Shown in pieces: positions 1-25,730 of a stretch of DNA of 64,000 nt. Positions within the stretch are counted from its first letter, which is position 1. Every line of letters begins with the position of its first letter. The translations under genes and the position numbers were made by a program. Source of the stretch: a virus; IMG/VR virus record IMGVR_UViG_3300045988_147882. One strand, written 5' to 3'. A model generated the notes under the pieces. The model did no database searches. It was not told the origin of the DNA and saw only the letters and a program-made list of their open reading frames with translations.

Positions 1-146
1 AACACAAAAACTAAACTAGACACATTTTTGGAAATCTAGTTATATATTCTGTATATCAATTATATAGTCCTGCTTTTTTTTATGGTTCGACCATAATTCG
101 ACCATTTGATGTTTTATGTACTATCAAGATTTCTATATTTCATATT

Positions 147-407
147 TTAATCTTTTATAAATTTCCATGCGTCTTTAGGTAGCCATCCTTGCCGATTTTC
201 TGCTATTTCTGAAATAAGAAAACGGGCTTGAGGTTTGTTTTTTATAATGATATCTGCCAATTCATTAGCTTCTAATGTTGATTTTATTAAAAATGTGTTT
301 CTGATATCTGTTCTCCAGTCAGATATTTCTCTGATTGAATTTAATAACTCTTTGGTTTCTTCTTCATTACCTAGAGAATTGTTGTATATAAATATGTAAA
401 CTTTCAT
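147..407 (-). CDS. hypothetical protein (86 aa), last gene of a 3-gene minus-strand cassette
   Basis: ORF with ATGA overlap to the upstream gene; no recognisable motif. Confidence 0.5.
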   Translation of the reverse strand: MKVYIFIYNNSLGNEEETKELLNSIREISDWRTDIRNTFLIKSTLEANELADIIIKNKPQARFLISEIAENRQGWLPKDAWKFIKD

Positions 408-844
408 ACGTTATATATGTTATATTTGCATTTAATAATGTTTATCCTCAAATTATTATCCTCGTTTTTCTTGGCTATATCAATGGCTTCATCTATTACT
501 TCCTCAAATTCTTTATTGATAGGTCTTTTTTTAAATCCAGGAAATCCTTGTACTATATCATTAAGAGAGTTAAGGTAAATAGAAATACTTTCCCAAACGG
601 ATTTATTTTTATTTTTTAATGTGAGAGATAAAATATGTTCAAATACTTCTGTAATTTTATTATAGATATCATCATTAGGATGTATTTCTATATCAGGAAT
701 CTCTTTTCCTTCGGAATTGGAGAAATCAACTCTCTTTAAACGCATAACACTAATTTTCTCCATGTATTCATATTTGTTTAAATACAGGTTCGCTATGTCA
801 GAATAAATCTGCGCCATTGATTGTAATGTATCTATTGAGCACAT
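404..844 (-). CDS. hypothetical protein (about 147 aa; start at internal Met 844 preferred over 910)
   Basis: ORF 404..910. Met at 844 lies 4 nt after the stop of the upstream gene (849). Confidence 0.45.
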   Translation of the reverse strand: MCSIDTLQSMAQIYSDIANLYLNKYEYMEKISVMRLKRVDFSNSEGKEIPDIEIHPNDDIYNKITEVFEHILSLTLKNKNKSVWESISIYLNSLNDIVQGFPGFKKRPINKEFEEVIDEAIDIAKKNEDNNLRINIIKCKYNIYNV

Positions 845-848
845 AATA

Positions 849-1688
849 TTAATCTTTAGATTCCTTTCCACTTGAATTTGAAGAAACAAGTAATCGAACA
901 AAATCTCCAAGAAGTTTATTGTTTTGTTCTGATGTCTTCTTCATTTCATCTCGATATTGTTGAATTGTCTTTTGAAATTCTAGTGTCTTTTCGGCAACAC
1001 TAGATTCAAAATCTTTTTGGATTGTTGTAATATTTGTTTGCAACTCTTCCAATTGTTTGTTGCTTGCAAAAGACAACTTCTTTATTTCATCATCTGCTTG
1101 GTCATTTAATGATTTAATCTTTTTGGCCGCTTGTTTCTCTATATTGCCTGAATTTTCTTTTGCCTTAATAGAGAAATCTTCCATTTTATCCAAATAGTCT
1201 CTTCCTTGTTTTTGCATTTCATCCACTTTAAATATTGAGTATATAGAGAAAATAAGGAATACAATCATCAATATACCAGCCCATAACGACAATACAGTAA
1301 AATCATGCTGTAATTTGTTATATTGTAGCTCTAGCAAAGATAATGATTCTTTTTGTTTTTCTTCCACTATATCAATAACAACTTGATCTAGACTAATGGT
1401 GCTATCTTTAGTTATGGTTAGAGATTTTAAATATTTGTTTGTTAAGTTGTCGTAAAACTCCTTTTGGACTTCAATAACTTTATTTTGACTTCCCCTATAG
1501 TTTAAATGGAAAAGAACGAATATTGCAATGATACAGATTGTACATACAATAATGGAAATTAAGAATTTTCCTTTGTATAGATGAAGGCGTTTTTTATCTA
1601 TATAATGCGAACAATTCTCTGAGCATTTTGCAGACGGGTTATCTTCTTGCTTTGCTGTTTCTTGTTTGGGATTTTCTTTTTCTGTCAT
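849..1688 (-). CDS. membrane-anchored coiled-coil protein (279 aa), function unknown
   Basis: Two hydrophobic helices (FLISIIVCTICIIAIFVLF, WAGILMIVFLIFSIYSIF) separated and followed by heptad-rich segments. Confidence 0.6.
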   Translation of the reverse strand: MTEKENPKQETAKQEDNPSAKCSENCSHYIDKKRLHLYKGKFLISIIVCTICIIAIFVLFHLNYRGSQNKVIEVQKEFYDNLTNKYLKSLTITKDSTISLDQVVIDIVEEKQKESLSLLELQYNKLQHDFTVLSLWAGILMIVFLIFSIYSIFKVDEMQKQGRDYLDKMEDFSIKAKENSGNIEKQAAKKIKSLNDQADDEIKKLSFASNKQLEELQTNITTIQKDFESSVAEKTLEFQKTIQQYRDEMKKTSEQNNKLLGDFVRLLVSSNSSGKESKD

Positions 1689-1703
1689 AGTTATTTTCTT
1701 TTA

Positions 1704-2099
1704 TTATCCTACATTTCGTTCATTTTTCAACATAGCTAATTCGCCTTCGATTTTTTTCAACTTCTCTGTTAGTAATTGATTAGTTTTCATCTGTTCATTT
1801 ATAGTCCCCTGAAGGGTTGCTATTGTATCAACAAGGCGTTCCATGCGTTCAATATTTGGATCAGGTTTGATATCTGAAATCAGCATTGGGCCTTTATTGC
1901 GTAGTAACCAATCTGCTGAAATATCCGTAAATGCGTTTAATGTGAGCTTAATTACTTTAGAGGAAGGTTCTGTGTTTTTTTGAAACATTGAACCAATCAC
2001 CGATTGGGTTACCCCAATTTTAATGGAAAACTGTCTGTCTGACAGCTTATAATAAGAGATAATCTCTCTAATTTTTTCGTTTACGCTTGTTTCAGCCAT
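1704..2099 (-). CDS. HTH (XRE/cI-like) phage repressor, paralog A
   Basis: N-terminal HTH (LSDRQFSIKIGVTQSVIGSMF) plus WLLRNKGPM motif and a C-terminal coiled coil ending GELAMLKNERNVG. Confidence 0.75.
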   Translation of the reverse strand: MAETSVNEKIREIISYYKLSDRQFSIKIGVTQSVIGSMFQKNTEPSSKVIKLTLNAFTDISADWLLRNKGPMLISDIKPDPNIERMERLVDTIATLQGTINEQMKTNQLLTEKLKKIEGELAMLKNERNVG

Positions 2100-2114
2100 A
2101 TCTATAATTAATAG

Positions 2115-2173
2115 TCAATTAACGTAAATACGATTATTTATCAAGCTTTGTGTTTTGTAATTAATGTAAATAC
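2115..2173. promoter_or_regulatory. Two direct repeats TAA(C/T)GTAAATACG in the intergenic region upstream of repressor A (candidate operators)
   Basis: gtcaattaacgtaaatacg at about 2115-2133 and gtaattaatgtaaatacg at about 2156-2173. Confidence 0.4.
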
Positions 2174-2184
2174 GTTTATATTTG
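2154..2184 (+). promoter_or_regulatory. Bacteroides-type promoter (TTTG-19 nt-TATATTTG) reading rightward, antisense to repressor B
   Basis: TTTG at 2154-2157 and TAtaTTTG at 2177-2184. Confidence 0.5.
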
Positions 2185-2188
2185 CATC

Positions 2189-2230
2189 ATCAATCAATCA
2201 ATACTCCAAAAGTATAAAAAGTGATTGATA
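2189..2230. promoter_or_regulatory. Inverted repeat ATCAATCA-N21-TGATTGAT (copy 1)
   Basis: Arms at 2193-2200 and 2222-2229, immediately downstream of the TATATTTG box. Confidence 0.5.
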
Positions 2231-2261
2231 AAACAATGCTATGATATGTTCTTTTCATGGC

Positions 2262-2648
2262 TTATCCTACATTTCTTTCATTCTTCAACATAGCCAGTTC
2301 ACCCTTTAATTTTTGGTTTTCTTCCAAAAGCCGTTGGGTAAGCACTGTCTTCTCATTGATTTCATCCTGCAAATTGGCTATGGTATATACAATACTTTTC
2401 AATTTGTCCATTCCTGGTTCTGTTTCTTCTTTTTGAATGAGCATGGAACCAGTTCCTCTTAACAACCATTCTGCGGAAATTTCCTCAAATGAGGATGAAA
2501 TTGCTATTATTGTTGCAAGGCTAATTTCTCTTTTTCCTATCAGTTGATTATTAATAGTTGTGGGCTTTAATCCACACTTAATAGCAAATCCCCTCTCTGA
2601 TAGCCCTGAATAGGTTATTACTTCTTTAATTCTGTTTATCATAATCAA
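2262..2648 (-). CDS. HTH (XRE/cI-like) phage repressor, paralog B
   Basis: HTH (LSERGFAIKCGLKPTTINNQL), WLLRGTGSM motif, and the same C-terminal 13 aa (GELAMLKNERNVG) as paralog A. Confidence 0.75.
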   Translation of the reverse strand: MIMINRIKEVITYSGLSERGFAIKCGLKPTTINNQLIGKREISLATIIAISSSFEEISAEWLLRGTGSMLIQKEETEPGMDKLKSIVYTIANLQDEINEKTVLTQRLLEENQKLKGELAMLKNERNVG

Positions 2649-2659
2649 TCAAAAGTTAA

Positions 2660-2721
2660 ATATCCACAAATGGGGATATAAAGTAGGTTTTAAATTTTTA
2701 TATATCCACATTTGAGGATAT
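2660..2721. promoter_or_regulatory. Two palindromic operators ATATCC-N8-GGATAT
   Basis: Operators at 2660-2679 and 2702-2721. The second overlaps the -7 box TATATTTG at 2719-2726. Confidence 0.55.
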
Positions 2722-2733
2722 ATTTGCATCATA

Positions 2734-2771
2734 AATCAATCAATCATACAAACATACAAAAATTGATTGAT
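2734..2771. promoter_or_regulatory. Inverted repeat ATCAATCAAT-N17-ATTGATTGAT (copy 2)
   Basis: Arms at 2735-2744 and 2762-2771, in the same position relative to TATATTTGCATCAT as copy 1. Confidence 0.5.
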
Positions 2772-2795
2772 AAAACCAATTAAAAAATAACGATT

Positions 2796-3089
2796 ATGAG
2801 CTACAATTTATCACAAATAATGAAGTCTGCACACCGCAATTACAAGAAGGGTGGAAAAACATTTTCAGAGTGTTTAAAATCTGCATGGAGCTTCGCAAAA
2901 CTCCAAGAAAGTTTCTCACCGGAAGCTATGAAATCAAGAACTGATAAATTTTTAGCTGAAAGACATGAAGCTATGAGCAAGACTGCCAAAGCTACACCTA
3001 GCAAGGAATATAATAACCTTAATATTCCCGCTTCCGCTTACTACAACCCAAATAGTACTCATTACGGTGCACATTACGTCGGAGATTAA
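2796..3089 (+). CDS. hypothetical early protein (97 aa)
   Basis: First rightward ORF after the operator region. Confidence 0.55.
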   Translation: MSYNLSQIMKSAHRNYKKGGKTFSECLKSAWSFAKLQESFSPEAMKSRTDKFLAERHEAMSKTAKATPSKEYNNLNIPASAYYNPNSTHYGAHYVGD

Positions 3090-3104
3090 TCAAATTATAC
3101 AACA

Positions 3105-3341
3105 ATGGATAAAAGAACCGAACTAGAAATACAGCGAGACAAATATGAAGCTGTGATTGAAGAACGAGACGCGTTGATCAGCTCTTTGAGAGGTGAGAAT
3201 GAAAAACTCAAACGAGATTTAGAATCAGAACGTGGATTTTATAGAGAGAAAGTTTCCCAATGTGATGATTTGAAGAAATTTATTGAATCGCAACGAAACT
3301 TAATGGACATAGTTTTGAAGAACAACCAAAGTATTCTCTAA
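3105..3341 (+). CDS. hypothetical coiled-coil protein (78 aa)
   Basis: ORF with heptad-rich sequence. Confidence 0.5.
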   Translation: MDKRTELEIQRDKYEAVIEERDALISSLRGENEKLKRDLESERGFYREKVSQCDDLKKFIESQRNLMDIVLKNNQSIL

Positions 3342-3615
3342 CCCTCACTAAAGTCAAACCAAACCGCCGGTTATCCGGTACCCAGTCCGGTCTTTGAGCC
3401 TGCCCTTGAAGGGAGACTGGGAACAACAGAGAAGAGTTCTTTGACATATTGGTAAAATGGTGTTTTGGAAGCCGACACATGCCGAAAGGGATTACTGATG
3501 TAGGCGGGCTTCTCAACGATATAATGCTGTGGTTAATGGTCAAGCCGTATCGTTGTAAAACTAAATCAGTTAGACGTTTGTCGGCAAATCGAGGTATTTG
3601 CTTTATGTATATAAA
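3342..3615 (+). ncRNA. Candidate structured noncoding leader upstream of tRNA-like gene 1
   Basis: No plausible ORF. Nested helices CCCAGTC/GACTGGG, GAAGCC/GGCTTC and CGATA/TATCG, plus a GAAA-capped hairpin. It starts with the AAAGTCAAACCA leader motif. Confidence 0.3.
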
Positions 3616-3686
3616 GGTGATGTAGCTTAGTTGGTTAGAGCGCATGTTTCTACATGAGGTCGGCGGTTCGAATCCGTTCATCACTT
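3616..3686 (+). tRNA. tRNA-like gene 1 (71 nt): canonical acceptor/D/T arms, 14-nt mini anticodon arm
   Basis: GGTGATG-TA-GCTT-AGTTGGTTA-GAGC-G-CATGT-TTCT-ACATG-AGGTC-GGCGG-TTCGAAT-CCGTT-CATCACT-T. Confidence 0.55.
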
Positions 3687-3702
3687 CAGTGTTTAATTGA
3701 CG

Positions 3703-4149
3703 TTACAACTGCGTGTATATCTTATAAATTGCATAGGCTGTTAAACTAATAATAAAGAATAGAAATGAAATGTAGGAAATTGACTCACAAATTGCGAAGA
3801 TTTTATTGCGTGGTACGGCTGGCGTTACGGTCATTTTGGAATTGTATAAGCTATAGAGGATATATTCTTCTACCCGTTTTTGAGCGTTGCGTATCATCAC
3901 GTTGCTCATTGCTCGATTCTCGTATATGGTTATACACGAAAAAAGGATGGATAGTGCGTTTGAACATATTACCACCAATAGTAAAATTCGACTGCAAGCG
4001 TTGTTGGTTGAAAGATTGCTTAAAGAAACAAGTACAGCAAAAGTAGCAGATGCAACAGTCAACAGAGTGCTTTGGAGTCTGAAAGTCCATTCGATTTTTT
4101 TCTCTAAAGTTTCTTTGTAGTATGAAACTACTTTTTCTTCATTATTCAT
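3703..4149 (-). CDS. integral membrane protein (148 aa), opposite-strand moron
   Basis: ORF with 3-4 hydrophobic helices; the competing overlapping ORFs are shorter and low-complexity. Confidence 0.6.
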   Translation of the reverse strand: MNNEEKVVSYYKETLEKKIEWTFRLQSTLLTVASATFAVLVSLSNLSTNNACSRILLLVVICSNALSILFSCITIYENRAMSNVMIRNAQKRVEEYILYSLYNSKMTVTPAVPRNKIFAICESISYISFLFFIISLTAYAIYKIYTQL

Positions 4150-4160
4150 ATTTTTCTTGT

Positions 4161-4235
4161 TTTTTGATTTGACACTTCAAAAATAAGAAAATCCCCCGTT
4201 CCTTTTTTATTAGCGAATAATCTTGGAACGGGAAA
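4161..4235 (+). promoter_or_regulatory. Repeated leader element copy 1 (conserved box plus hairpin CCCGTTCC/GGAACGGG)
   Basis: The box TTTTTGATTTGACACTTCAAAAATAAGAAAATCCCCCG is shared with 4471-4508. Confidence 0.4.
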
Positions 4236-4258
4236 ATTATTAACTAATTAATAATCAC

Positions 4259-4456
4259 ATGATTCAAGTAACAATTAAAAACGATAGCAATGAGAATTTG
4301 GAAGATGCCACATTCTCATTGCATGTAGAGAATATGCCGATAAAATCAGCTAAAATAGTAGCCGAAAAGCTTCCTGCTATGATACAGAAAGCTTTTGGGG
4401 ATTATGCAGATTGTAAAGTCGGGTTTAATCGAGATAAAAAGAGAGATAATGAATGA
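4259..4456 (+). CDS. hypothetical protein (65 aa)
   Basis: ORF following leader element copy 1. Confidence 0.45.
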   Translation: MIQVTIKNDSNENLEDATFSLHVENMPIKSAKIVAEKLPAMIQKAFGDYADCKVGFNRDKKRDNE

Positions 4457-4470
4457 ATTTCTTCACTTAA

Positions 4471-4556
4471 TTTTTGATTTTACACCCCAAAGTTAAGTAA
4501 ATCCTCCGAATAAAGCGTGATGCTGCCGATCGAATTGGTTCGGGGGAGCTTTTATT
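4471..4556 (+). promoter_or_regulatory. Repeated leader element copy 2 (conserved box plus hairpin CTCCGAA/TTCGGGG)
   Basis: TTTTTGATTTTACACCCCAAAGTTAAGTAAATCCTCCG. The stem sequence differs from copy 1 but pairing is kept. Confidence 0.4.
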
Positions 4557-4571
4557 TTAAAATTAATCAGT

Positions 4572-4778
4572 ATGGAAAAAGAAATAGAAAGACGCAGTAT
4601 AATCAATGTTTTGCGAAACATGGACGTTGGTGCAATAGAAGTATTTCCTATCATTCAAAAAACGTCTGTTACTTACACTTTAAATGCTCGGCTTTATAAA
4701 GAAAAAGCTGAAGGAATGGTTTGGAAAACAAAGTCAGACGTAAAAAATATGCAGTTTATAGTAACTAGAATTGCGTAA
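4572..4778 (+). CDS. hypothetical protein (68 aa)
   Basis: ORF following leader element copy 2. Confidence 0.45.
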   Translation: MEKEIERRSIINVLRNMDVGAIEVFPIIQKTSVTYTLNARLYKEKAEGMVWKTKSDVKNMQFIVTRIA

Positions 4779-4795
4779 CTACCTTGTTTGTTGAG

Positions 4796-5050
4796 ATGAT
4801 TAGAGGTGAAATGGCTGAAATATTGCTAGATAATATTCTCCGTCTGTTTTCTACAGAGACATTCGGAAAAGATAAGTCTGCATATTATGTAGGTGGGGAA
4901 AAGAAATTGATGAATCTTATAGAAGCGGGTAAGATTGAAAGTGATAAGCCTGTAAATGCTCAAAATGGTAAATGGCACTGTAATGCTGCTCAGGTATTAC
5001 TTCATTGCCGATGCGCTAAGAAAGTCAAACGTAAAAAACGGAAGAAATGA
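4796..5050 (+). CDS. hypothetical protein with basic C-terminal tail (KKVKRKKRKK)
   Basis: The ORF track starts at TTG 4784; the first ATG is at 4796. Confidence 0.45.
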   Translation: MIRGEMAEILLDNILRLFSTETFGKDKSAYYVGGEKKLMNLIEAGKIESDKPVNAQNGKWHCNAAQVLLHCRCAKKVKRKKRKK

Positions 5051-5238
5051 AAACATTGAAAATCGTTCATAACATTTTTACAGTGGTTGCCTTATTGGTA
5101 GCTATGTATATAGGTGGGGGAATCGAAGCTACAAGAAGTGATATCGCTTGGTCATATATCATATTCTTCGTAGTCGTTGTACTATTGGTTACTAGATTTA
5201 TCTATGAAGATAAGAAACAAAATAAAAATAGCCTGTGA
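5047..5238 (+). CDS. small membrane protein (63 aa)
   Basis: ATGA overlap with the previous ORF; two hydrophobic helices. Confidence 0.5.
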   Translation: MKTLKIVHNIFTVVALLVAMYIGGGIEATRSDIAWSYIIFFVVVVLLVTRFIYEDKKQNKNSL

Positions 5239-5294
5239 AGGTCAACATTGCTTAATTTTAGTATTTGCCAATTAGCCCGGTTCTCCGGGCATCT

Positions 5295-5365
5295 GCCGGG
5301 ATAGCCCAGTTGGTTAGAGCGCATGTTTCTACATGAGGTCAGCGGTTCGAATCCGTTTCCCGGCT
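5295..5365 (+). tRNA. tRNA-like gene 2 (71 nt): same body as gene 1, different acceptor stem
   Basis: GCCGGGA-TA-GCCC-AGTTGGTTA-GAGC-G-CATGT-TTCT-ACATG-AGGTC-AGCGG-TTCGAAT-CCGTT-TCCCGGC-T. Confidence 0.55.
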
Positions 5366-5461
5366 CAACTCAATCAGAGTTAAGTAACCCGTGAGGGGGA
5401 AAATTATGTTTGTATCAATAACAATTCAATCAATGTAGCCGGAAGCGTCTGGCTACGACCT

Positions 5462-5559
5462 GAAGGAATGGCGGAATTGGTAGACGCAAGTATGCAGATA
5501 GATTGAAGAAAGTCATACATAGGTAATCTGTCATCCCGGTTCGAGTCCGGGTTCCTTCA
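5462..5559 (+). tRNA. tRNA-like gene 3 (98 nt): Leu-like D arm, 46-nt irregular central region
   Basis: GAAGGAA-TG-GCGGAATTGGTAGACGC...CCCGG-TTCGAGT-CCGGG-TTCCTTC-A. No 5-7-5 hairpin was found in any register of the central region. Confidence 0.5.
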
Positions 5560-5786
5560 CAGAGAATTTTTCTTTTTATGTTTAACTAATGTTGCCAGCG
5601 AAAAGGACGCTGTAGGGTTAAAGCCCCTGTTATTTGAGTTTTAATTGTTCTATACTATTCCGGTGTGCTTTGAACGGCTATCCGGAAGCAAGAAGCTCGT
5701 GAGAGTGCTATTTAATAGTTAATGTCGTGTTTTATTTTGTGTTTGTGTTCTAGGTGAATGGTTCGTGAGAATAGTTCACTTAAAAC

Positions 5787-5853
5787 GGATGGCTGGTGTA
5801 ATTGGCAGCATACGCAGATATGCGTGATGTGGGTTCGATCCCCACGCCATTCA
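5787..5853 (+). tRNA. tRNA-like gene 4 (67 nt): mini hairpin ACGCA-GATA-TGCGT instead of an anticodon arm
   Basis: GGATGGC-TG-GTGT-AATTGGCAGC-ATAC...GTGGG-TTCGATC-CCCAC-GCCATTC-A. Confidence 0.5.
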
Positions 5854-5954
5854 CCCTTCTGATCCTAATTAAATTATAGTAGTTCATGAGTTTTGTTTTG
5901 TGTTTGTGATTGGGGTGTATGGTCTGTGAAGATAGTGCACCTTTTTAATTAATC

Positions 5955-6037
5955 GGGCGGATATGTATATCGTTGGTTGAAACTGCGGTGATGTGCACCA
6001 ATATTCCGTGAGACCGGTTCGACTCCGGTTCCGTCCA
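5955..6037 (+). tRNA. tRNA-like gene 5 (83 nt): G3:T70 pair and A73, no canonical anticodon arm
   Basis: GGGCGGA...ACCGG-TTCGACT-CCGGT-TCCGTCC-A. The only central hairpin is GGTG-ATGTG-CACC. Confidence 0.5.
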
Positions 6038-6131: not shown

Positions 6132-6162
6132 CTGCCTGTACAATACCGTACAGGCAGTTTTT
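6132..6162 (+). terminator. Rho-independent terminator closing the tRNA-like array
   Basis: CTGCCTGTAC-aatacc-GTACAGGCAG followed by TTTTT. Confidence 0.8.
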
Positions 6163-15199: not shown

Positions 15200-17719
15200 A
15201 TGAAAATGAAAGACTATATAGAATTTCTAAAAGACAAGATGGCTATTAGCCACAATACTGGATTTGAAGTTAATCCTAATGAAATATCAACTTCTCTTTA
15301 CCCTCATGTGAGAGATACCGTTCGTTGGGCGGTTTCCGGTGGTTGCCGTGCCATATTCTCCAGTTTCGGTATGCAGAAAACAGTAACCCAATTGGAGATA
15401 TGCAGAGTTATAATCAACCAGTATTTTGGTAAAGCTCTTATCGTTTGTCCTAAACGTGTAGTAGTAGAGTTTATCACCCAAGCTAAGGAGCACATGAACA
15501 TGACAGTTAAGTATGTCAAGACCATGAGCGAAGTCAGAGCCTGCAAGTGTGATATAATGATTACCAACTATGAGCGTGTCCGTGACGGAGAAGACGGCGT
15601 AAGAATAGAACCTTCCTTTTTTACCGTTACCTCATTGGATGAAGCAAGCGTATTGAGAGGGTTCGGCACCAAGACATACCAAGAGTTCCTACCGCTGTTC
15701 GCCGATGTGCCTTTCCGCTTTGTTGCCACTGCCACGCCGTCACCTAACAGATACAAGGAGCTGATACATTATGCCGGATATCTTGGAGTGATGGATACAG
15801 GTCAAGCCCTTACACGTTTTTTTCAACGTGATAGTACCAAAGCTAATAATCTAACGCTTTATCCACACAAAGAAAAAGAATTTTGGCTGTGGGTATCAAC
15901 TTGGGCATTGTTCCTAACCAAGCCTTCCGACCTCGGTTATCCTGATACCGGCTATGAATTGCCGGAACTGCGGGTACATGAAGAAGTGGTTAGCGTTGAC
16001 AATTCCACTGCCGGTACAGACCGTGACGGACAAGTGAAGATGTTTCGTGAGGCTGCTCTCGGACTTGCTGATGCAGCGAAAGAACGTCGGGACAATATGG
16101 CAGAGAAGATTGCCCGTGTCGTAGAGATTATTAATCGTCCTGAAAACAAGGACGAGCATTTCCTTTTGTGGCATGACCTTGAGAGTGAGCGGGAAGCCCT
16201 TTGCAAGGCTATCCCCGGTTGCAAAGCTGTTTATGGCTCGCAGGATGATGAGGAAGCCGACAAGGTGATAGCGGACTTCAAAAACGGGAGATTGAAATAC
16301 CTGGCCGCAAAGCCTGAAATGCTTGGTGAGGGTTTGAACTTCCAGTACCATTGTCATAAGGCTATCATGTTCATCGACTACCGGTTCAATGACAAGTTTC
16401 AGGCGATAGCCCGTATCTACCGTTTCATGCAAAAACATCCTGTAGACCTTTACTTGGTCTATGCAGAAAGTGAAGGAGAGATATTCAAAAGCTTTATGCA
16501 GAAATGGGCGCAGCATCGTGAAATGGTTTCTAAAATGACTGATATCGTCCGTGAGAACGGTCTGTTCGGTTTGCAGGCAGAGGAGAAGATGATGCGCTGG
16601 ATGTTTGCCAGCCGTGAAGAAAAATCCGGTAAACTGTGGAAAGCCATCAATAACGACAATGTTTTGGAGTGTCAGAAAATGGAAAGCAACTCGGTGGATT
16701 TGGTTGTAACCAGCATCCCTTTTTCCAATCATTACGAATATACGCCGACCTATAACGATTTCGGGCATAATGAAAGCAACGACAAGTTCTTCGAGCAGAT
16801 GGACTACCTCACACCAGAACTGATGCGGATATTGAAGCCTGGGCGGCTGGCTTGCATCCATGTGAAAGACCGTGTATTGTTCGGTAATGCCACAGGTGAC
16901 GGTATGCCCACCATCGACCCGTTCTCCGAAATGACGGTATTTCACTACATGAAACACGGATTCCGCTACATGGGGCGTATCACAGTAGATACCGATGTGG
17001 TAAGGGAGAATAACCAGACCTACCGCCTTGGCTATACAGAGATGTGCAAAGATGGTTCTAAGATTGGTATTGGTTGCCCTGAATATGTGCTTCTTTTCCG
17101 TAAACTGCCTTCTGATACTTCACGTGCCTATGCAGATTTGCCAGTAACCAAGAATAAGAATGAATATTCGTTAGCCCGCTGGCAAATAGATGCTCATGCA
17201 AGTTGGAAATCTTCAGGTAATACTTTGTTAAGCTATGAAGATATGAAAGTTGCCGGTATTGACAAGATACGCCATTTGTTTAGAAACTATGAGCGTGAAC
17301 ATATATACAATTATGAAGAACATGTTGCTTTCGCTGAAGAATTAGAAGTTTACGGTAAACTACCAAAAACATTTATGGCCGTAGATCCTGTAAGTAAGAA
17401 ACCTTGGATTTGGGATGACGTTACCCGGATGCGTACACTCAATACCAAGCAGTCACAGAAAAAACGTCAAAATCATATTTGTCCTCTTCAGCTTGATATT
17501 GTTGAGAGGTTGATTGAACGGTATTCAAATAAAGGAGACTTGGTATTCGACCCATTTGGCGGTATCGGTACTGTTCCTTACTGTGCTATTAGATTGGGGC
17601 GTAAAGGGCTCTCTACCGAGTTGAATTATGACTATTGGAAAGACAGCCTTTCATACTTGCATGAAGCTGAAATTGAAGTGAATGCACCGACGCTATTTGA
17701 TTTGATGGAAGCTATTTAA
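15200..17719 (+). CDS. Superfamily-2 helicase fused to a beta-class amino (N6-A/N4-C) DNA methyltransferase
   Basis: N-terminal GMQKT, LDEAS and ATATPSPN. C-terminal VVTSIPFS (motif IV variant) followed by FDPFGGIGT (motif I). Confidence 0.75.
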   Translation: MKMKDYIEFLKDKMAISHNTGFEVNPNEISTSLYPHVRDTVRWAVSGGCRAIFSSFGMQKTVTQLEICRVIINQYFGKALIVCPKRVVVEFITQAKEHMNMTVKYVKTMSEVRACKCDIMITNYERVRDGEDGVRIEPSFFTVTSLDEASVLRGFGTKTYQEFLPLFADVPFRFVATATPSPNRYKELIHYAGYLGVMDTGQALTRFFQRDSTKANNLTLYPHKEKEFWLWVSTWALFLTKPSDLGYPDTGYELPELRVHEEVVSVDNSTAGTDRDGQVKMFREAALGLADAAKERRDNMAEKIARVVEIINRPENKDEHFLLWHDLESEREALCKAIPGCKAVYGSQDDEEADKVIADFKNGRLKYLAAKPEMLGEGLNFQYHCHKAIMFIDYRFNDKFQAIARIYRFMQKHPVDLYLVYAESEGEIFKSFMQKWAQHREMVSKMTDIVRENGLFGLQAEEKMMRWMFASREEKSGKLWKAINNDNVLECQKMESNSVDLVVTSIPFSNHYEYTPTYNDFGHNESNDKFFEQMDYLTPELMRILKPGRLACIHVKDRVLFGNATGDGMPTIDPFSEMTVFHYMKHGFRYMGRITVDTDVVRENNQTYRLGYTEMCKDGSKIGIGCPEYVLLFRKLPSDTSRAYADLPVTKNKNEYSLARWQIDAHASWKSSGNTLLSYEDMKVAGIDKIRHLFRNYEREHIYNYEEHVAFAEELEVYGKLPKTFMAVDPVSKKPWIWDDVTRMRTLNTKQSQKKRQNHICPLQLDIVERLIERYSNKGDLVFDPFGGIGTVPYCAIRLGRKGLSTELNYDYWKDSLSYLHEAEIEVNAPTLFDLMEAI

Positions 17720-18157: not shown

Positions 18158-18814
18158 ATGACAGAGATTATTCAAGTCTGCCTACTTGATTTTAATAAGG
18201 GGCAGCTCACGGGATTGCCGAAAAATCCACGTTTTTTTCGTGATTACCGCTTTGAAGCGATGAAGAAAAGCATTCAGGATTCGCCAGAGATGCTTGAACT
18301 TCGAGAACTTATAGTTTTTCCCTACAATGATGGCAGATATATTGTTGTTTGTGGTAATTTACGTTTGCGAGCTTGCAAGGAGTTAGGTTATAAAGAACTG
18401 CCTTGTAAAATTCTGGCACCTGATACCCCCGTTAAGAAGTTGAGGGAATATGCCACTAAAGATAATGTCAATTTTGGTGAGAATGATTTGGACGTTATGG
18501 AAAACGAGTGGAATAAGGCGGAACTCCAAGATTGGGGCATCGAATTTGCCCCGGAGAAGAAAGAGGATGAATTTAAAGAGCGCTTCGATGCCATCACGGA
18601 TGATACAGCCATTTATCCTCTCATTCCAAAGTATGACGAAAAACATGAGTTGTTTATCATCACCTCAAGTAATGAGGTAGATAGCAACTGGCTTCGTGAA
18701 AGGCTGGATATGCAGCACATGAAGTCGTACAAGACCGGGAAAGTAAGTAAGAGTAATGTAATCGACATAAAAGACGTTCGCCATGCCTTGCAAAATAGTA
18801 ATACCAAGTCATAA
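18158..18814 (+). CDS. ParB/Srx-like nuclease domain protein
   Basis: GRYIVVCGNLRLRACKELGYKELPCKI. Confidence 0.55.
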   Translation: MTEIIQVCLLDFNKGQLTGLPKNPRFFRDYRFEAMKKSIQDSPEMLELRELIVFPYNDGRYIVVCGNLRLRACKELGYKELPCKILAPDTPVKKLREYATKDNVNFGENDLDVMENEWNKAELQDWGIEFAPEKKEDEFKERFDAITDDTAIYPLIPKYDEKHELFIITSSNEVDSNWLRERLDMQHMKSYKTGKVSKSNVIDIKDVRHALQNSNTKS

Positions 18815-19535
18815 GCGCCATGACCGGGTGTTCGCTAAAAAGTTGGTGAACGATCCTATCATTTGCGTTGCTGAAAGTCAAGCTGACTTATATCAACAAT
18901 TTAACCCGGAATGTGAAATTGTTACTCATCCTGACGATGTTATGGGCCTCATCCCGAAACGTAACTGGATGGCAAAGCATTTTGGAGAACTTTTCATGCT
19001 TGATGATGATGTCCATGCCTGCAAACCTATTTATGTGGAAAAAGGAGAACCTAGCCGGATAAAGGATAAAGATAAGATAACCAATATCATTCAGTCATTA
19101 TTTGAGATGGCCAGTATGATGGATGTACATCTGTTTGGCTTCACCGCTCGGATATCGCCGGTAATGTATGATGAATCCGCTTTTCTTTCTCTTTCGAAAA
19201 TGATAACCGGTTGCAGTTATGGAGTAATCTATAACAAAAACACTTGGTGGAATGAGGAAATACGTTTGAAGGAAGATTTTTGGATTTCTTGTTACATGAA
19301 GTACAAAGAACGTAAGGTTTTAACCGATTTGCGGTATAATTTTGAGCAAAAGAACACTTTTGTAAACGCTGGTGGGCTTGCTTCTATAAGGAATCAGGAA
19401 GAGGAACGTAAATCTATCCTCTTTATCAAAAAGAATTTTGGTGATAGTATTTTGCTAAAGAGTGCAACCACTAATGGGAAAGACAAAACAAAGCAGCTCG
19501 TTCAATATAATATATCATGCAAATTCAAATTCTAA
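18783..19535 (+). CDS. hypothetical protein, possibly GT-A-like glycosyltransferase
   Basis: N-terminal IVIPSHKRHD and FMLDDDV (DxD-like); assignment is tentative. Confidence 0.3.
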   Translation: MPCKIVIPSHKRHDRVFAKKLVNDPIICVAESQADLYQQFNPECEIVTHPDDVMGLIPKRNWMAKHFGELFMLDDDVHACKPIYVEKGEPSRIKDKDKITNIIQSLFEMASMMDVHLFGFTARISPVMYDESAFLSLSKMITGCSYGVIYNKNTWWNEEIRLKEDFWISCYMKYKERKVLTDLRYNFEQKNTFVNAGGLASIRNQEEERKSILFIKKNFGDSILLKSATTNGKDKTKQLVQYNISCKFKF

Positions 19536-19544
19536 TAGTCTGTA

Positions 19545-19633
19545 AAAAAGGCGTTTAAATGGCGTCCATTCTGTTTGTCATATTCGCCTTTTTTAGCTAA
19601 TTTTACTGATGTAATAAACTAAAAGTCAAACCA
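19545..19633 (+). promoter_or_regulatory. Repeated promoter module copy C (most diverged)
   Basis: AAAAGGCGTTTAAATGGCG...TTTG-20 nt-TAATTTTACTGATGTAATAAAC...AAAAGTCAAACCA. Confidence 0.55.
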
Positions 19634-19646
19634 TTAAATTAGAATT

Positions 19647-20222
19647 ATGATTATAAGAACAGTTTGCGGATATGATTTCTTTGAGGTGAGTTCTGCAATG
19701 CAGAAAGCCATTAGGCGAGCCGACACCGGGGTAGCCGGCTTTTTTGCATTGGAACTTTGGGCGAGTGGGTACCGCGACTATGTGTGGAAGCGTCTGTTTA
19801 CCATTAGTGCTGAAGATTGCTATGGAATCATTACTAAAGAGATAGAAGCATTGTGGCAGGGGCATGAGCTGGTAAACAAGACTGCTACTGAACCCAAAGG
19901 GAGGATATTTGTCAGTAAAGCTGTTATTCTCCTTTGTGAATGTAGAAAGAATCGTGATGCGGATCATTTGCAAAACTTCATCTATGATAGAAAGGATATT
20001 GATATAGAAAAGTGGATAAATGATGTCAGGCGTTATCCTATTCCTATTCCAGATTACACTTTCGATGTACATACACGAAAGGGTAAAAAACATGGGAGAA
20101 CCAAAGAAGAATTCTTTCAGGAAGAATACAAGGCGTTACAACCTCGTGTTCCTGGTTTATTCGATGATTTGGTTCAACCCAGTCAACCAAAGTTATTTAA
20201 TGATGAAACCACGGCTAAGTAG
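19647..20222 (+). CDS. hypothetical protein with MgsA-C-terminal-like helical motif
   Basis: FFEVSSAMQKAIRRADTGVAGFFALEL resembles the MgsA/WRNIP C-terminal domain (recalled from memory). Confidence 0.35.
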   Translation: MIIRTVCGYDFFEVSSAMQKAIRRADTGVAGFFALELWASGYRDYVWKRLFTISAEDCYGIITKEIEALWQGHELVNKTATEPKGRIFVSKAVILLCECRKNRDADHLQNFIYDRKDIDIEKWINDVRRYPIPIPDYTFDVHTRKGKKHGRTKEEFFQEEYKALQPRVPGLFDDLVQPSQPKLFNDETTAK

Positions 20223-20240
20223 CTGTGGTTTCTCATTTTT
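20205..20240 (+). terminator. Hairpin terminator overlapping the stop codon
   Basis: GAAACCACGGCT-aagt-AGCTGTGGTTTC followed by TCATTTTT. Confidence 0.6.
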
Positions 20241-20270
20241 CATATAAGTCAAACCAATTTAATTAAAACA

Positions 20271-20918
20271 ATGAACACGTATTACAAATTTGCGCCAAAT
20301 GTATTTTTGGCAAAGTGTGATGAGAAGCACGAAAAAGGTGAAACTATTGAGGTTACCACCAAGTATGGTAAGGAGAACGAAAGTATAGTATTTAACCTAA
20401 TCTTCGAGAAAGATGGGTTTTACTATTACTCCATCGTTAGAGCTGACGGCTTTAATGTTCAAGAATGGGCTAAGCAAAGAGCGGAACGCAGGCATGAATG
20501 GGCGTCATCGGCAGTACAAAAAAGTAATGAGTATTTTCAGAAATCAAATAAACATCGCGATTTCCTTTCTTTGGGTGAGCCTATCAAAGTTGGACACCAT
20601 AGCGAACGAGGACATCGCAAAATGATAGATGATGCCTGGAATAACATGGGGAAAAGCGTTGAGTTTAGCGATAAGGCTGCCGAACATGAAAGAGTTGCGA
20701 AGTATTGGGAAAAAAGGGCTAATACGATAAACTTGTCCATGCCGGAAAGTATAGATTTCTATGAACATAAGTTGGAACAAGCAAAAGAATATCACGAAGG
20801 ATTGAAGTCCGGTAAGTACCGACGCGAGCATACATACGCTATGGCTTATGCCAATAAAGCAGTAAAAGAGGCTAAAAAAAATTATGACCTTGCAGTAAAG
20901 CTGTGGGGCGATGTTTAA
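20271..20918 (+). CDS. DUF3560-like protein
   Basis: GEPIKVGHHSERGHRK motif, typical of that family as I recall it. Confidence 0.45.
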   Translation: MNTYYKFAPNVFLAKCDEKHEKGETIEVTTKYGKENESIVFNLIFEKDGFYYYSIVRADGFNVQEWAKQRAERRHEWASSAVQKSNEYFQKSNKHRDFLSLGEPIKVGHHSERGHRKMIDDAWNNMGKSVEFSDKAAEHERVAKYWEKRANTINLSMPESIDFYEHKLEQAKEYHEGLKSGKYRREHTYAMAYANKAVKEAKKNYDLAVKLWGDV

Positions 20919-20946
20919 TAATCTGTAGTATCTCAAATAATTTACT

Positions 20947-21411
20947 ATGAGAGAATTATCAAAAGAAACCTCATTACAAAGGGTAATGAGGGCTTCAGGT
21001 CGTGTACCTGTACAATGCTCATGCAGTGTTTGTAAACAACAATGTCATACGCCATGTTTAGGTACTCCTGATGATATTGAACGAATTATAGATGCTGGTT
21101 ATGCCGACAGGTTAGCACTGACAAACTGGGCTGCTGGTATATTCTTAGGGGTTATTAATATTGCTATTCCGATGATTCAACCTGTTTCCGGCAAAGAGTT
21201 TTGTGCTTTCTTCGAAAATGGACTGTGTATCTTACATGATAAGGATTTGAAACCCACTGAAGGGCGTTTGTCTCACCACACTGTCAGGAAGGATAACTTC
21301 AATCCAACTATGAGTATTGCTTGGAACGTTGCGAAAGAATGGCTGATGCCAGAGAATGAGGATGTACTTTCTCGTGTAGTAAATAAATTCTTGAATGCGA
21401 GGAAGCCATGA
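20947..21411 (+). CDS. Cys-rich hypothetical protein (possible metal cluster binding)
   Basis: QCSCSVCKQQCHTPC. Confidence 0.4.
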   Translation: MRELSKETSLQRVMRASGRVPVQCSCSVCKQQCHTPCLGTPDDIERIIDAGYADRLALTNWAAGIFLGVINIAIPMIQPVSGKEFCAFFENGLCILHDKDLKPTEGRLSHHTVRKDNFNPTMSIAWNVAKEWLMPENEDVLSRVVNKFLNARKP

Positions 21412-21740
21412 ATGTGTATCAATCAATACCTCGTAGAGATTGTAGGGTGTTTGCTAAATGTGGGGCAAAATCCTTATCACATTGCCGGCGGCATCGTGGA
21501 ACTGATGGTGAGTGTAAAAACTGTACTCTTATTCATCGCAAACCTCGCAATCGTATTATAGATGCTTCAGGACGTGAGATGAAAAAATGTACACACTGCG
21601 GAAATTACTTCTACTTGAACCGGTTCTACAATCGTATAGTAGTGAGAAAGGGTAAGGAATATCATTTATTGACTTCTTGGTGCCGCATGTGTATGTCTGA
21701 AATCAATAATCAAAGAAATTTGAAGAAAAGAAATGAGTAG
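21408..21740 (+). CDS. Cys-rich zinc-finger-like protein (110 aa)
   Basis: CRRH...CKNC...CTHCGNYF...WCRMC; ATGA overlap upstream. Confidence 0.45.
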   Translation: MNVYQSIPRRDCRVFAKCGAKSLSHCRRHRGTDGECKNCTLIHRKPRNRIIDASGREMKKCTHCGNYFYLNRFYNRIVVRKGKEYHLLTSWCRMCMSEINNQRNLKKRNE

Positions 21741-23418: not shown

Positions 23419-23502
23419 AATGGCGTTAAATTGGCGAATGTTCTGTTTGTAAAACTTGTCAATAATGATTACCTTTATAGATGTAAAGAACTAAAAGTCA
23501 AT
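23417..23502 (+). promoter_or_regulatory. Repeated promoter module copy D
   Basis: AAAATGGCGTTAAATTGGCGAATGTTCTGTTTGT...TACCTTTATAGATGTAAAG...AAAAGTCAATCA. Confidence 0.55.
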
Positions 23503-23506
23503 CAAT

Positions 23507-23752
23507 ATGAAGAGGAATGAAAAAATAGCAAAATTAGAAAGACTAGGTATTTTCAATCAATGGAAATATAATACAGAAAGAGCAAATGAGACATTTAATA
23601 TTGAGTGTCCTGACTTCTCAATGACAAATGAAGAGCGGATGAACAATTTGTTAGATGTTGATTGCTGTTTTCATTGGTTTCTAACTATTTCATTCCCTTT
23701 TAATAATACTCCTGAAGGCGTTGCTTTTTGGAATGATATTGCAAAAAAATAA
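23507..23752 (+). CDS. hypothetical protein (81 aa)
   Basis: ORF after promoter copy D. Confidence 0.45.
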   Translation: MKRNEKIAKLERLGIFNQWKYNTERANETFNIECPDFSMTNEERMNNLLDVDCCFHWFLTISFPFNNTPEGVAFWNDIAKK

Positions 23753-23778
23753 TTAAAATAAAATTAGAAAGGAATCAA

Positions 23779-24570
23779 ATGATAATAGCATGGTTCAGTT
23801 GCGGTGCTACATCCGCAGTTGCTTGTAAGATAGCATTAAGCCTATACGATGATGTGCATATCTACTATATTGAAACTGGTTCCGGTCATCCCGATAACAC
23901 TAGATTCTTGGCAGATTGTGAAAAGTGGTACAATCAATCTATCCACATTATCCGAAGCGACAAGTACACCTGTGTGTCTGATGTGTTGCGAAAGGGGTAT
24001 ATCAACGGCGCGCATGGTGCCGCCTGTACTCTTGAACTGAAAAAGAAAGTCCGCTACAAGTTGGAAAAAGAATTGCAGCACTGGGACGGTCAAGTTTGGG
24101 GTTTCGATTATGACCCGAAAGAGATTAACCGGGCTATCCGATTAAAACAGCAGTACCCGGACACAAAGCCACTATTCCCGCTTATTGAAAAGCAGATTAC
24201 GAAGCAGGATGCAATGGGAATGCTTTGGAAAGCCGGTATTGAAATCCCCGCTATGTACAAGATGGGCTATAATAACAACAATTGTATCGGTTGCGTGAAA
24301 GGCGGAATGGGCTACTGGAATAAGATACGAAAGGACTTCCCGGATGTATTTAACGAGGTGGCGCAGATTGAACGTGATGTAGGTGCAACTTGTCTAAAAG
24401 ATAAAGACGGACGAATCTTCCTTGACGAACTCCCAACATGGCGAGGTGACCCAGTAGAAGAGATTATACCGGATTGCTCGCTTATCTGTCAGATAGAGTT
24501 TCAAGAGATAATCGACAGGCAGGTAGAACGAGTTTTGAAAGGAGAAATTAGTATTAACGATGTAGCCTAA
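23779..24570 (+). CDS. PAPS-reductase-like / PP-loop ATP pyrophosphatase family protein
   Basis: N-terminal IIAWFSCGATSAVA (degenerate PP-loop) and C-terminal NCIGCVKGG; this family is common in phages. Confidence 0.55.
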   Translation: MIIAWFSCGATSAVACKIALSLYDDVHIYYIETGSGHPDNTRFLADCEKWYNQSIHIIRSDKYTCVSDVLRKGYINGAHGAACTLELKKKVRYKLEKELQHWDGQVWGFDYDPKEINRAIRLKQQYPDTKPLFPLIEKQITKQDAMGMLWKAGIEIPAMYKMGYNNNNCIGCVKGGMGYWNKIRKDFPDVFNEVAQIERDVGATCLKDKDGRIFLDELPTWRGDPVEEIIPDCSLICQIEFQEIIDRQVERVLKGEISINDVA

Positions 24571-24592
24571 TTAGGCTCAAAACAAGATAGAT

Positions 24593-25412: not shown

Positions 25413-25433
25413 AATAACAGAAAGGAATAAATT

Positions 25434-25661: not shown

Positions 25662-25697
25662 CACTCAAAATACAGTCTGTAATGAATAAAAGCAAAA

Positions 25698-25730
25698 GGC
25701 GGGTTGCAAAGCCGCCTCCTGTTTATTTTA
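25698..25730 (+). terminator. Hairpin GGCGG-N-CCGCC with a weak T tract
   Basis: aaaGGCGGgttgcaaagCCGCCtcctgtttatttt. Confidence 0.45.

Follow-up and report, generated by a model that had tools for sequence, protein, structure and literature searches.

Transfer RNA mimics devoid of an anticodon are already known and include the tRNA-like domain of tmRNA, YrlA, mascRNA, t-elements, viral tRNA-like structures (TLS) and the vtRNAs of murine gammaherpesvirus 68 (MHV68). Plant mitochondrial t-elements, which reportedly form mRNA ends, are non-decoding tRNA-like folds located between or beside genes; their acceptor and T arms are conserved and, in the manner of tRNA punctuation, cleavage by RNase P and RNase Z makes the ends of their neighbors. 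MALAT1/mascRNA, MEN-beta and the MHV68 TMER RNAs join a tRNA shape with a degenerate anticodon arm to another structured RNA, and their cleavage by RNase P or tRNase Z both matures the neighbor and frees a CCA-tailed small RNA; the tRNA-likes of MHV68 are virus-encoded and are not aminoacylated. Phage T4 produces two stable RNAs, species 1 and 2 (rnaC and rnaD), which lie in its tRNA cluster, have tRNA-like ends and depend on host tRNA enzymes. In engineered tRNA scaffolds and polycistronic tRNA-guide RNA arrays, an RNA is inserted in place of the anticodon loop or between tRNAs, and the RNase P and RNase Z of the host then process and stabilize it, a design for which we know of no natural bacterial or phage counterpart. 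YrlA-type modules are non-decoding tRNA mimics, some of them phage-encoded, that are cut by RNase P, tailed by the CCA-adding enzyme and modified by TruB and DusA, and that have been proposed to shield RNA from nucleases (PMC4201824). Here we describe five tRNA-like elements, g1 to g5, in a 64,000-nucleotide (nt) stretch of viral DNA (IMG/VR record IMGVR_UViG_3300045988_147882; hereafter the window). All five lie on the plus strand between positions 3616 and 6037 and have acceptor and T arms, and sequence comparisons support the view that they are selected, non-decoding, tRNA-shaped RNA genes rather than decaying pseudogenes.

ARAGORN called just two tRNA-like genes in the window, at 3616-3687 and 5295-5366, each as 'tRNA-???' with a two-base anticodon (tc), equivalent to a 6-nt loop at best. 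Searches with Infernal and the Rfam tRNA model RF00005 (gathering cut-off, 29 bits) recovered g1, g2 and g3 at the gathering threshold and g4 with sensitive filters only, at E-values of 7e-10 to 5e-4 with the whole window as search space (scores in Table 1). The departures from the model fall in the anticodon arm: the loop is collapsed in the alignments of g1 and g2 (4 in the model versus 1 in the sequence), the arm of g4 is shortened (9 versus 4), and in g3 a 33-nt insertion takes the place of the whole 17-position arm. Element g5 stayed below the cut-off, its sole match, to tRNA-Sec (17.1 bits, E=8.7), being at chance level. A 5-7-5 anticodon arm was produced by no program for any of g1 to g5. 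Instead of a 5-bp stem with a 7-nt loop, U33 and a 3-nt anticodon, we find loops of 4 nt in g1, g2 and g4, of 19 nt in g3, and of 5 nt in g5, where the hairpin is unrelated. A preliminary description of this DNA had placed the five elements where we find them and had allowed that standard software might yet fold them into normal cloverleafs; neither ARAGORN nor Infernal with RF00005 returned a 7-nt anticodon loop.

The other arms are those of a tRNA. Both inspection and folding revealed the 7-bp acceptor stems that had been proposed for all five elements, and the T loops read GGTTCGAATCC in g1, GGTTCGAATCC in g2, GGTTCGAGTCC in g3, GGTTCGATCCC in g4 and GGTTCGACTCC in g5. The full set of canonical arms (7-bp acceptor stem, D arm with A14 and G18G19, 5-bp T stem and GTTCRANYC-type T loop) is present in g1 to g4; the earlier attribution of such a D arm, with A14, to all five holds for these four but fails for g5, which has the acceptor and T arms only and in which A14 and the D stem are absent by position. 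When folded as single sequences, g1, g2 and g4 adopt a cloverleaf whose 5-bp anticodon stem is capped by a 4-nt loop, and the same three elements retain the tertiary core (U8, A14, G15-C48-type pairs and G18G19) together with that 5-bp stem. The identity of the 14-nt mini-hairpins of g1 and g2, and the length and different mini-hairpin of g4, are as first described (Table 1). The 3' flanks of all elements begin with C, and CCA is not encoded. No further convincing acceptor/T-arm element came up when all 64 kb of the window were scanned with relaxed criteria.

The scaffolds resemble different tRNAs. The body of g1 and g2 had been likened to that of CAU-type Met/Ile tRNAs, which was not borne out: the acceptor stem and U73 of g2 are of a type found in tRNA-Thr of many bacteria (CGT/TGT anticodons), and the D/T body common to g1 and g2 recurs in phage Ile, Val and Asn tRNAs. 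The D-arm type of g4 occurs in phage Trp, Asp and His tRNAs. The tRNA-Leu-type D arm and the 46-nt center ascribed to g3 are both present, the center forming no 5-7-5 hairpin but rather a 5-bp stem (5490-5494/5514-5518) around the 19-nt loop; a 9-bp helix is also possible (5497-5505/5524-5532) and would make a pseudoknot with this stem. The core of g5 is non-canonical and consists of a D-loop-like TTGGTTGAAAC and a hairpin, GGTG-ATGTG-CACC, with the palindrome GTGCAC; variants contradict its minimum free energy (MFE) helix, and a consensus core is not derivable. What g5 variants and diverged homologs do retain is the acceptor GGGCGG/CCGTCC, A73 and a GC-rich palindrome. We note that such a palindrome is present in all of the otherwise divergent g5-type centers, as GTGCAC, GTGCGCAC or GTTGCGCAAC (window 5987-5999; 2477-2487 in the diverged relative L002; an 84-nt variant in five related loci), and that it may be a dimerization or protein-binding feature.

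An exact 24-mer from the center of g1 and g2 occurs in 73 IMG/VR contigs, and further scans extended the set to 97 loci. The array is kept in about 100 IMG/VR contigs and in three Bacteroides genomes, the latter copies being a prophage in a 1.85-Mb Bacteroides congonensis scaffold and two Bacteroides metagenome-assembled genomes. This conservation, together with the Rfam E-values, excludes a chance origin of the elements. Among related loci g2, g3, g4 and g5 are each represented by some 70-80 copies; a few relatives lack g4, and its cassette is missing with it. The most conserved element of the array is g2, with 51 identical copies. In an alignment of 25 distinct arrays, nucleotide diversity is 0.017 in g2 and 0.014 in its leader hairpin versus 0.152 in the adjacent open reading frame (ORF) 5047-5238, so that g2 is about ten-fold less diverse than its neighbor; relative to this ORF, both g2 and its hairpin are under strong purifying selection.

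The pattern of change in the stems points in the same direction. Across 16 distinct g1/g2 sequences 97.9% of stem cells are paired and six of the seven acceptor pairs show double changes. In g3 all stem cells (100%) are paired and two of the seven acceptor pairs show double changes, A2-U71 and G5-C68 becoming G-C and A-U (GGAGAAA/TTTCTCC in L002); three single changes fall in the possible 9-bp helix of this element, and all three preserve pairing. The acceptor stem of g1 drifts between G1-U72 and A1-U72 and between U3-A70, U3-G70 and C3-G70. The mini-loops drift in both sequence and length, from TTCT to TTCC, TTTT, TTTTT and TTTGG in g1/g2 and between GATA and GGTA in g4; other phages have CTG or TTTA. 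In 845 kb of related loci ARAGORN returned 103 calls, of which 96 are 'tRNA-???' with a 2-nt anticodon; the remaining seven carry isotype labels (Arg five times, Gln, Glu), and we take them to be further non-canonical forms of these elements, so that no canonical tRNA was found in the 845 kb. The compensatory stem changes, the conservation in about 100 contigs and the low diversity of g2 argue against decay, in agreement with the earlier argument that random decay would not have taken the decoding arm alone from all five copies.

Comparison of alleles further indicates that the anticodon position is a swap site; neither the dimorphism of g1 nor the structured inserts at this position appear in the preliminary description. 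In about 48 relatives g1 is a 134-nt allele whose acceptor, D and T arms match those of the short form (for instance, L191 1224-1357 and L001 ~4000-4133); the short form, present in the window, is the minority allele. In the long allele the mini-hairpin is replaced by a 77-nt insert in which a 12-bp stem bears a hairpin resembling a T arm, GAGAG-TTCGAGT-CTCTC, and after it TAGCTTAACGGAAGAGC, which has the look of a canonical D arm; judged by these arms, it amounts to one tRNA-like core nested within another. The permuted T-then-D order of the insert is that of the YrlA tRNA-like domain. The YrlA model (RF02553) gives the insert 21.7 bits versus a gathering score of 69, with many model pairs non-canonical, and its weak matches elsewhere (22.9 bits at 3542-3672 in the window, 21.5-24.5 bits in relatives) also fail to reach that score, making the likeness a lead from sequence, not a membership. 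The short g1 and g2 share 33 identical central bases, and intermediate alleles exist, a pattern consistent with recombination between paralogs. The g3 scaffold also occurs with a second, unrelated 54-nt center, and the g3 center in a second, covarying acceptor. One g2 variant has a 7-bp stem and a 9-nt loop, and L002 contains six or seven units, one of them of 127 nt.

Capped tRNA-likes were also seen in unrelated environmental phages, at L082 9362-9474 (minus strand), in L086, at L094 ~1405-1500 and at L244 892-958 and 1036-1124 (both minus strand). These have GGGGAAG or GGTCGAT acceptors, 20-50-nt D-loop insertions and capped anticodon stems (CGAGG-CTG-CCTCG in L244; GTGG-TTTA-CCAC, with a D-loop insert, in L094). 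The one in L082 lies just upstream of an acyl-carrier-protein gene. L094 and L244 have a leader in common, GACAGCTCGGAAAGACG.

Table 1. Features of the array and its surroundings (positions are those of the window; scores are from Infernal with RF00005)
Feature	Position	Strand	Score (bits)	Description
Candidate promoter	3310-3317	+		TAGTTTTG; matches the Bacteroides -7 motif TAnnTTTG; possible start of a leader + g1 transcript
Leader of g1	3342-3615	+		~270 nt, conserved; hairpin GCAAAT-CGAGGT-ATTTGC at 3585-3602
g1	3616-3686	+	57.8	71 nt; acceptor GGTGATG/CATCACT, U73; canonical D and T arms; center CATGT-TTCT-ACATG
g2 leader hairpin	5275-5290	+		GCCCGG-TTCT-CCGGGC; ends 4 nt before g2; fold z = -4.0
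g2	5295-5365	+	54.7	71 nt; acceptor GCCGGGA/TCCCGGC, U73; mini-hairpin same as in g1; fold z = -4.0
g3 leader hairpin	5435-5456	+		GTAGCCGGA-AGCG-TCTGGCTAC; ends 5 nt before g3; folded
g3	5462-5559	+	36.5	98-nt tRNA-Leu-like scaffold; A73; D arm TGGCGGAATTGGTAGACGC
T/G-rich stretch	5730-5749	+		TTTTATTTTGTGTTTGTGTT; first part of a cassette repeated before g4 and g5
g4 leader hairpin	5752-5781	+		Variable lower stem, conserved top ATGGTTC-GTGA-GAATAGT; ends 5 nt before g4
g4	5787-5853	+	39.1	67 nt; A73; D arm TGGTGTAATTGGCAGCAT; center ACGCA-GATA-TGCGT
g5 leader hairpin	5913-5946	+		Second copy, top ATGGTCT-GTGA-AGATAGT, two compensated pairs, then TTTTT; ends ~8 nt before g5
g5	5955-6037	+		83-nt acceptor/T-arm RNA; G1-C72, G2-C71, G3-U70, A73; T arm ACCGG-TTCGACT-CCGGT
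Array terminator	6132-6162	+		CTGCCTGTAC-AATACC-GTACAGGCAG + TTTTT; strong intrinsic terminator; conserved in relatives

A stable hairpin is found 3-14 nt upstream of every element, and the non-coding array extends from the stop codon of ORF 5047-5238 to the terminator, with no plus-strand ORF of at least 40 amino acids between 5238 and 6051. Upstream of g1, the segment 3000-3615 is covered by 53-58 related loci, with a BLAST identity of ~98% to the listed diverged relatives. The stretch 3342-3615 has an MFE z-score of just -1.0, no Rfam match, and ORFs that are short or overlapping with GTG/TTG starts; it is probably non-coding and, from its sequence and position, a candidate RNA whose 3' end would be generated when g1 is cleaved at its 5' end. 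In relatives the leader hairpin of g2 has the loop TTCG on an unchanged stem, and in B. congonensis a G-to-A change in the g3 leader converts a G-U pair to A-U. The L002 homolog of the T/G-rich stretch at 5730-5749 holds a perfect TATTTTTG.

The hairpins before g4 and g5 and those before three L002 units are paralogous, with a covarying lower stem, a conserved top and, mostly, a U-run thereafter; across them 92.9% of cells are paired and five of the 12 pairs show double changes. The second copy, before g5, looks like a terminator. The motif, of the form [A/C][U/C]GGUUC-GUGA-GAAUAGU and usually followed by a U-run, extends far beyond this phage family: at least 119 further IMG/VR loci (L262-L379), from very different phages of 4 to 400 kb, contain its 17-mer GGTTCGTGAGAATAGTR, and the hairpin occurs in the crAss-like phages cr130_1 and cr131_1 (L380 is NC_055901.1 82443-82468). 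It is absent from Rfam 15, and we found no description of it in the literature. Among the matches listed, about 40% of 87 distinct contexts place the GUGA hairpin just upstream of a canonical tRNA (nine) or of a T-arm-bearing tRNA-like (27). The same listed contexts include tandem RNAs of 47-55 nt that lie ahead of an ORF and contain little besides a 6-7-bp acceptor stem, a T arm and a short linker with GG. One such pair of minihelices, at ~2388-2440 and ~2516-2559 of L262, has a GUGA hairpin before each member and lies just upstream of an ORF starting MERTLKDRK; the same pair is present in L272, L279, L282, L294, L336, L354, L366 and L367. That the tRNA-likes might serve as processing handles for flanking hairpin RNAs had been raised in the preliminary description, and it receives indirect support from the hairpins so close to each element and from the recurrence of the same hairpin, in other gut phages, before canonical tRNAs and before 47-55-nt RNAs in which hardly anything but the RNase P/Z determinants is left.

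By its gene content the window is a temperate Bacteroides phage. CI-like helix-turn-helix repressors are encoded at 1704-2648 on the minus strand and are followed by a rightward early operon that begins with small ORFs (phrog_21219, 18744, 26666) and continues with Erf, SSB, a SNF2 helicase, VRR-NUC and ParB; the array sits within this early operon, after the repressors and small ORFs and before erf and ssb. Further downstream come DNA methylases and a DNA-hypermodification cluster, then terminase, portal, capsid and lysis genes and a diversity-generating retroelement (DGR). Fifty ORFs of the window, along with ten of L082, were compared with Pfam or PHROGs. Neither set gave an RNA ligase, CCA-adding enzyme, aminoacyl-tRNA synthetase-like protein, aminoacyl-transferase or Rsr. 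Among the 50 window ORFs we likewise found no other tRNA-processing or tRNA-repair enzyme and no Ro-type protein, for which reason host factors must act on the elements.

Other features of the window and of further loci were also noted. The DNA-modification cluster (18783-28704) comprises a TET-associated glycosyltransferase, a C5 cytosine methylase and PAPS-reductase-like, radical-SAM-like, nucleoside 2-deoxyribosyltransferase-like, NAD-epimerase and phosphoribosyltransferase-like ORFs, and a SNF2-N6/N4 methylase fusion is encoded at 15200-17719. The DGR (54747-58360) has its variable region (VR, 56260-56350) at the C-terminus of an Lcl_C-domain ORF and a template repeat (TR, 57017-57107) that is 85% identical to the VR, the differences being mostly at TR adenines; its reverse transcriptase-like ORF (56939-58360) scores 25.6 bits on RVT_1, slightly below the cut-off. 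Near the right end, ORF 61398-62510 has a putative AbiC abortive-infection domain (PF16872, 38.9 bits) and may be a lysogen-protecting moron. Two similar stretches of ~45 nt, TTTTGATTTGACACTTCAAAAATAAGAAAATCCCCCG and TTTTGATTTTACACCCCAAAGTTAAGTAAATCCTCCG (4152-4200 and 4462-4510), lie in a segment that varies among relatives and carry, on the minus strand, the Bacteroides -7 boxes TATTTTTG and TAACTTTG, the first well placed for a 148-amino-acid minus-strand ORF (3703-4149). Matches to the Bacteroides small RNA BTnc049, all below its cut-off of 81.9 (47-60 bits), were obtained at L084 283-390(-), L007 10846-10962(+), L030 285-400(-), L096 5479-5594(+) and L012 287-402(-), those in L084, L030 and L012 being 3-4.5 kb from g1 on the opposite strand; positions 1-3400 of the window gave no such match.

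Whether they are full L-shapes or minihelices, and whether or not they contain an insert, all versions of these RNAs share the acceptor stem and its discriminator, the T arm and the elbow, which are the determinants for RNase P, RNase Z and the CCA-adding enzyme. The anticodon loop is capped off in g1, g2 and g4 and is replaced by an idiosyncratic structured insert in g3, g5 and the long g1. We therefore favor, tentatively and at somewhat less than an even chance, the view that the elements are tRNA-scaffold or 't-element' modules of the early operon that would be processed by RNase P, RNase Z and the CCA-adding enzyme of the host. This reading is the best supported on account of the retained processing determinants, the hairpins right before the elements, the location in an early operon and the lack of a phage-encoded partner enzyme. 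Host RNase P would cut the 5' end of each element, and the 3' end would be finished by host RNase Z or exonucleases and the CCA-adding enzyme, such that an early or read-through transcript would be split into defined pieces. The upstream pieces would end in a stable hairpin and be protected from 3' exonucleases, and very stable small RNAs with a tRNA fold would be released, possibly with cargo at the former anticodon loop. Loss of the anticodon would keep these abundant RNAs out of translation.

Like t-elements and mascRNA, g1 to g5 keep the acceptor, T arm and elbow, have no functional anticodon and lie beside the ends of other RNAs. The likeness to each known system is partial. t-Elements are organellar and usually occur singly beside mRNAs, whereas the phage has arrays of four or five with structured inserts and its processing is predicted. 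mascRNA and the TMER RNAs depend on eukaryotic nuclear machinery and RNA polymerase II or III, and the TMER hairpins are downstream of the tRNA-like, in contrast to the upstream hairpins of the phage. The phage T4 RNAs are likewise phage-encoded stable small RNAs with tRNA-like ends but differ in host, size and fold and sit among functional tRNAs, of which the Bacteroides phage has none. The g3 element, the long g1 and the L002 units have the architecture of the man-made tRNA scaffolds and tRNA-flanked arrays.

Several observations weigh against a processing role. The full tertiary core of g1, g2 and g4 exceeds the need of a pure processing signal, which would not need five different acceptor types either, and four elements in a row with spacers of 96-227 nt are more than punctuation calls for, unless the hairpin RNAs of the spacers are themselves products. 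That RNase P or RNase Z of Bacteroides would cleave these RNAs is a prediction from structure. Boxes matching the Bacteroides -7 promoter consensus, TAnnTTTG, are not above chance over the window (candidates left: 2719, 3310 and 5405), and sigma-70-type promoters show no enrichment in it. No antisense target for the g3 insert was detected in the window with up to three mismatches. Finally, the GUGA hairpin may be just a terminator: it is also found with no tRNA-like after it, for instance in cr130_1, where it stands, as a terminator would, between an annotated tmRNA gene and the next coding sequence.

The full core of g1, g2 and g4 and the several acceptor types are better explained if the elements are decoys, a serious contender that we nevertheless regard as unlikely. 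The L-shapes would copy host tRNAs (with Thr-, Leu-, Trp/Asp- and Ala-like acceptors) and would titrate or inhibit host factors that bind the tRNA body or 3' end, such as nucleotidyltransferase or acetyltransferase toxins acting on the acceptor end, tRNA nucleases or other abortive-infection effectors; devoid of an anticodon loop, they would be neither cleavable there nor usable in decoding. Besides the retention of a whole tertiary core and full 5-bp anticodon stem and the five distinct acceptor identities, this proposal is consistent with the second tRNA elbow displayed by the long g1 allele, with the presence of similar RNAs in unrelated phages and with the position of the array between immunity and recombination genes, where lambdoid phages hold anti-defense and exclusion genes. 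However, we know of no tRNA-targeting system for these hosts; anticodon nucleases mostly bind through the very loop that is missing; the 47-55-nt versions of other phages mimic a whole tRNA poorly; and the body of g5 is not tRNA-like. Nor does covariation give a sign of specially protected identity elements, the acceptor of g1 being free to drift.

Charging of some of the elements is improbable. LeuRS and AlaRS ignore the anticodon, and the former might charge g3, the latter g5, to yield non-ribosomal aminoacyl donors, EF-Tu sinks or RNAs with a tmRNA-like role. In favor of this, g3 combines A73 with a Leu-type D arm that we take to be identical to that of E. coli tRNA-Leu, the G1-C72, G2-C71, G3-U70 and A73 of g5 are kept in diverged homologs, and 3' flanks that start with C without an encoded CCA fit CCA addition. 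The G3:T70 pair and A73 that had been pointed out in g5 as an AlaRS identity set are both present, but their weight is reduced by the G-U pairs at 1:72 in g1 and 2:71 in g4, next to which a 3:70 wobble may be incidental. Moreover, g1, g2 and g4 resemble tRNAs whose synthetases depend on the anticodon, the acceptor of g2 being of the Thr type, and no Fem/MprF/L-F-transferase, cyclodipeptide-synthase or LanB-type gene was recognized among the 50 window ORFs. The tRNA-like domain of tmRNA shares with g5 a G3-U70/A73 acceptor and a T arm without anticodon arm, but g5 has only 83 nt and neither tag reading frame nor pseudoknots; with no tmRNA called by ARAGORN and no RF00023 match in the window, tmRNA itself was rejected.

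A Y-RNA-like function, in which the tRNA-like module would, as in YrlA, act as tether or gate for a ring-shaped RNA-quality-control protein of the Ro/Rsr type or another, appears at least as improbable. It is suggested by the YrlA order of the T and D arms on the 12-bp stem of the long g1 insert and by the matches of the YrlA model to this insert and around g1 of the window. Yet these scores (21-24 bits versus 69) are far too low, and nothing corresponds to the acceptor-like hairpin of YrlA. In YrlA one circularly permuted module sits on a Ro-binding stem and rsr is encoded next to it, whereas the phage RNAs have normal acceptor stems, the g1 of the window is the short allele without insert, and no rsr gene is found in the window, its 50 scanned ORFs giving no Pfam match to Rsr/TROVE or vWA.

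Least probable of all, to the point of being very hard to sustain, is that the elements are relics, that is, captured tRNA genes with deleted anticodon loops that drift or hitch-hike, or DNA-level recombination or attachment sequences: the homopolymer-like loops TTTT, TTTTT and TTCT do resemble slippage products, the identical centers of g1 and g2 suggest gene conversion instead of independent selection, and g4 is missing from a few relatives, but the acceptor, D and T stems remain paired, with compensatory changes, in all five elements and in every allele from about 100 contigs, the diversity of g2 is ten-fold under that of the adjacent ORF, analogous RNAs exist in independent phage lineages, and one phage attachment site (attP) suffices per phage where here there would be five full-length sites in tandem.

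Other candidates were rejected outright. Doublet or quadruplet decoding, whether through the 2-nt anticodon or through an 8-nt loop on a 3-bp stem (GUUUCUAC), is ruled out by the drift in loop sequence and length. Interrupted tRNA genes do not fit, as three elements are shorter than a tRNA and the inserts of g3 and the long g1 have neither an Rfam intron match nor a restorable anticodon loop. Rfam 15 points to no known RNA family other than tRNA, apart from sub-threshold YrlA, BTnc049 and BTnc201 matches. The 3'-terminal TLS of tymo-, bromo- and tobamoviruses are likewise excluded, the elements being internal genes of a DNA phage with ordinary 5'/3' acceptor helices and no match to a TLS family of Rfam.

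Phage tRNA genes are normally explained by codon usage or by the replacement of tRNAs cut by defense systems. The phage family described here, very common among the Bacteroides prophages of the human gut, has four to seven tRNA-shaped genes and none that can decode; hence selection must act on a property other than translation. We found no description of phage arrays of anticodon-less tRNA-likes in the literature. It is conceivable, if rather doubtful, that gut Bacteroidales phages widely encode a new class of anticodon-less tRNA mimics, ranging from capped L-shapes to 47-nt acceptor/T-arm RNAs and often located behind a GUGA hairpin, as scaffolds for exchangeable RNA cargo, a second, Y-RNA-like tRNA elbow among them, or as non-cleavable, non-decoding decoys that would neutralize host immunity directed at tRNAs. 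The GUGA hairpin adds a second uncharacterized RNA motif, one shared widely by crAss-like and other gut phages, and cultivable lysogens such as Bacteroides congonensis Marseille-P3132 make the case experimentally accessible. Should the elements act as decoys, they would represent a new RNA-based anti-defense strategy. Should they instead be processed scaffolds, as we tentatively favor, they would be the first natural counterpart known to us, from bacteria or phages, of t-elements, mascRNA and the engineered tRNA scaffold, and would provide ready parts for stable RNA expression in Bacteroides.

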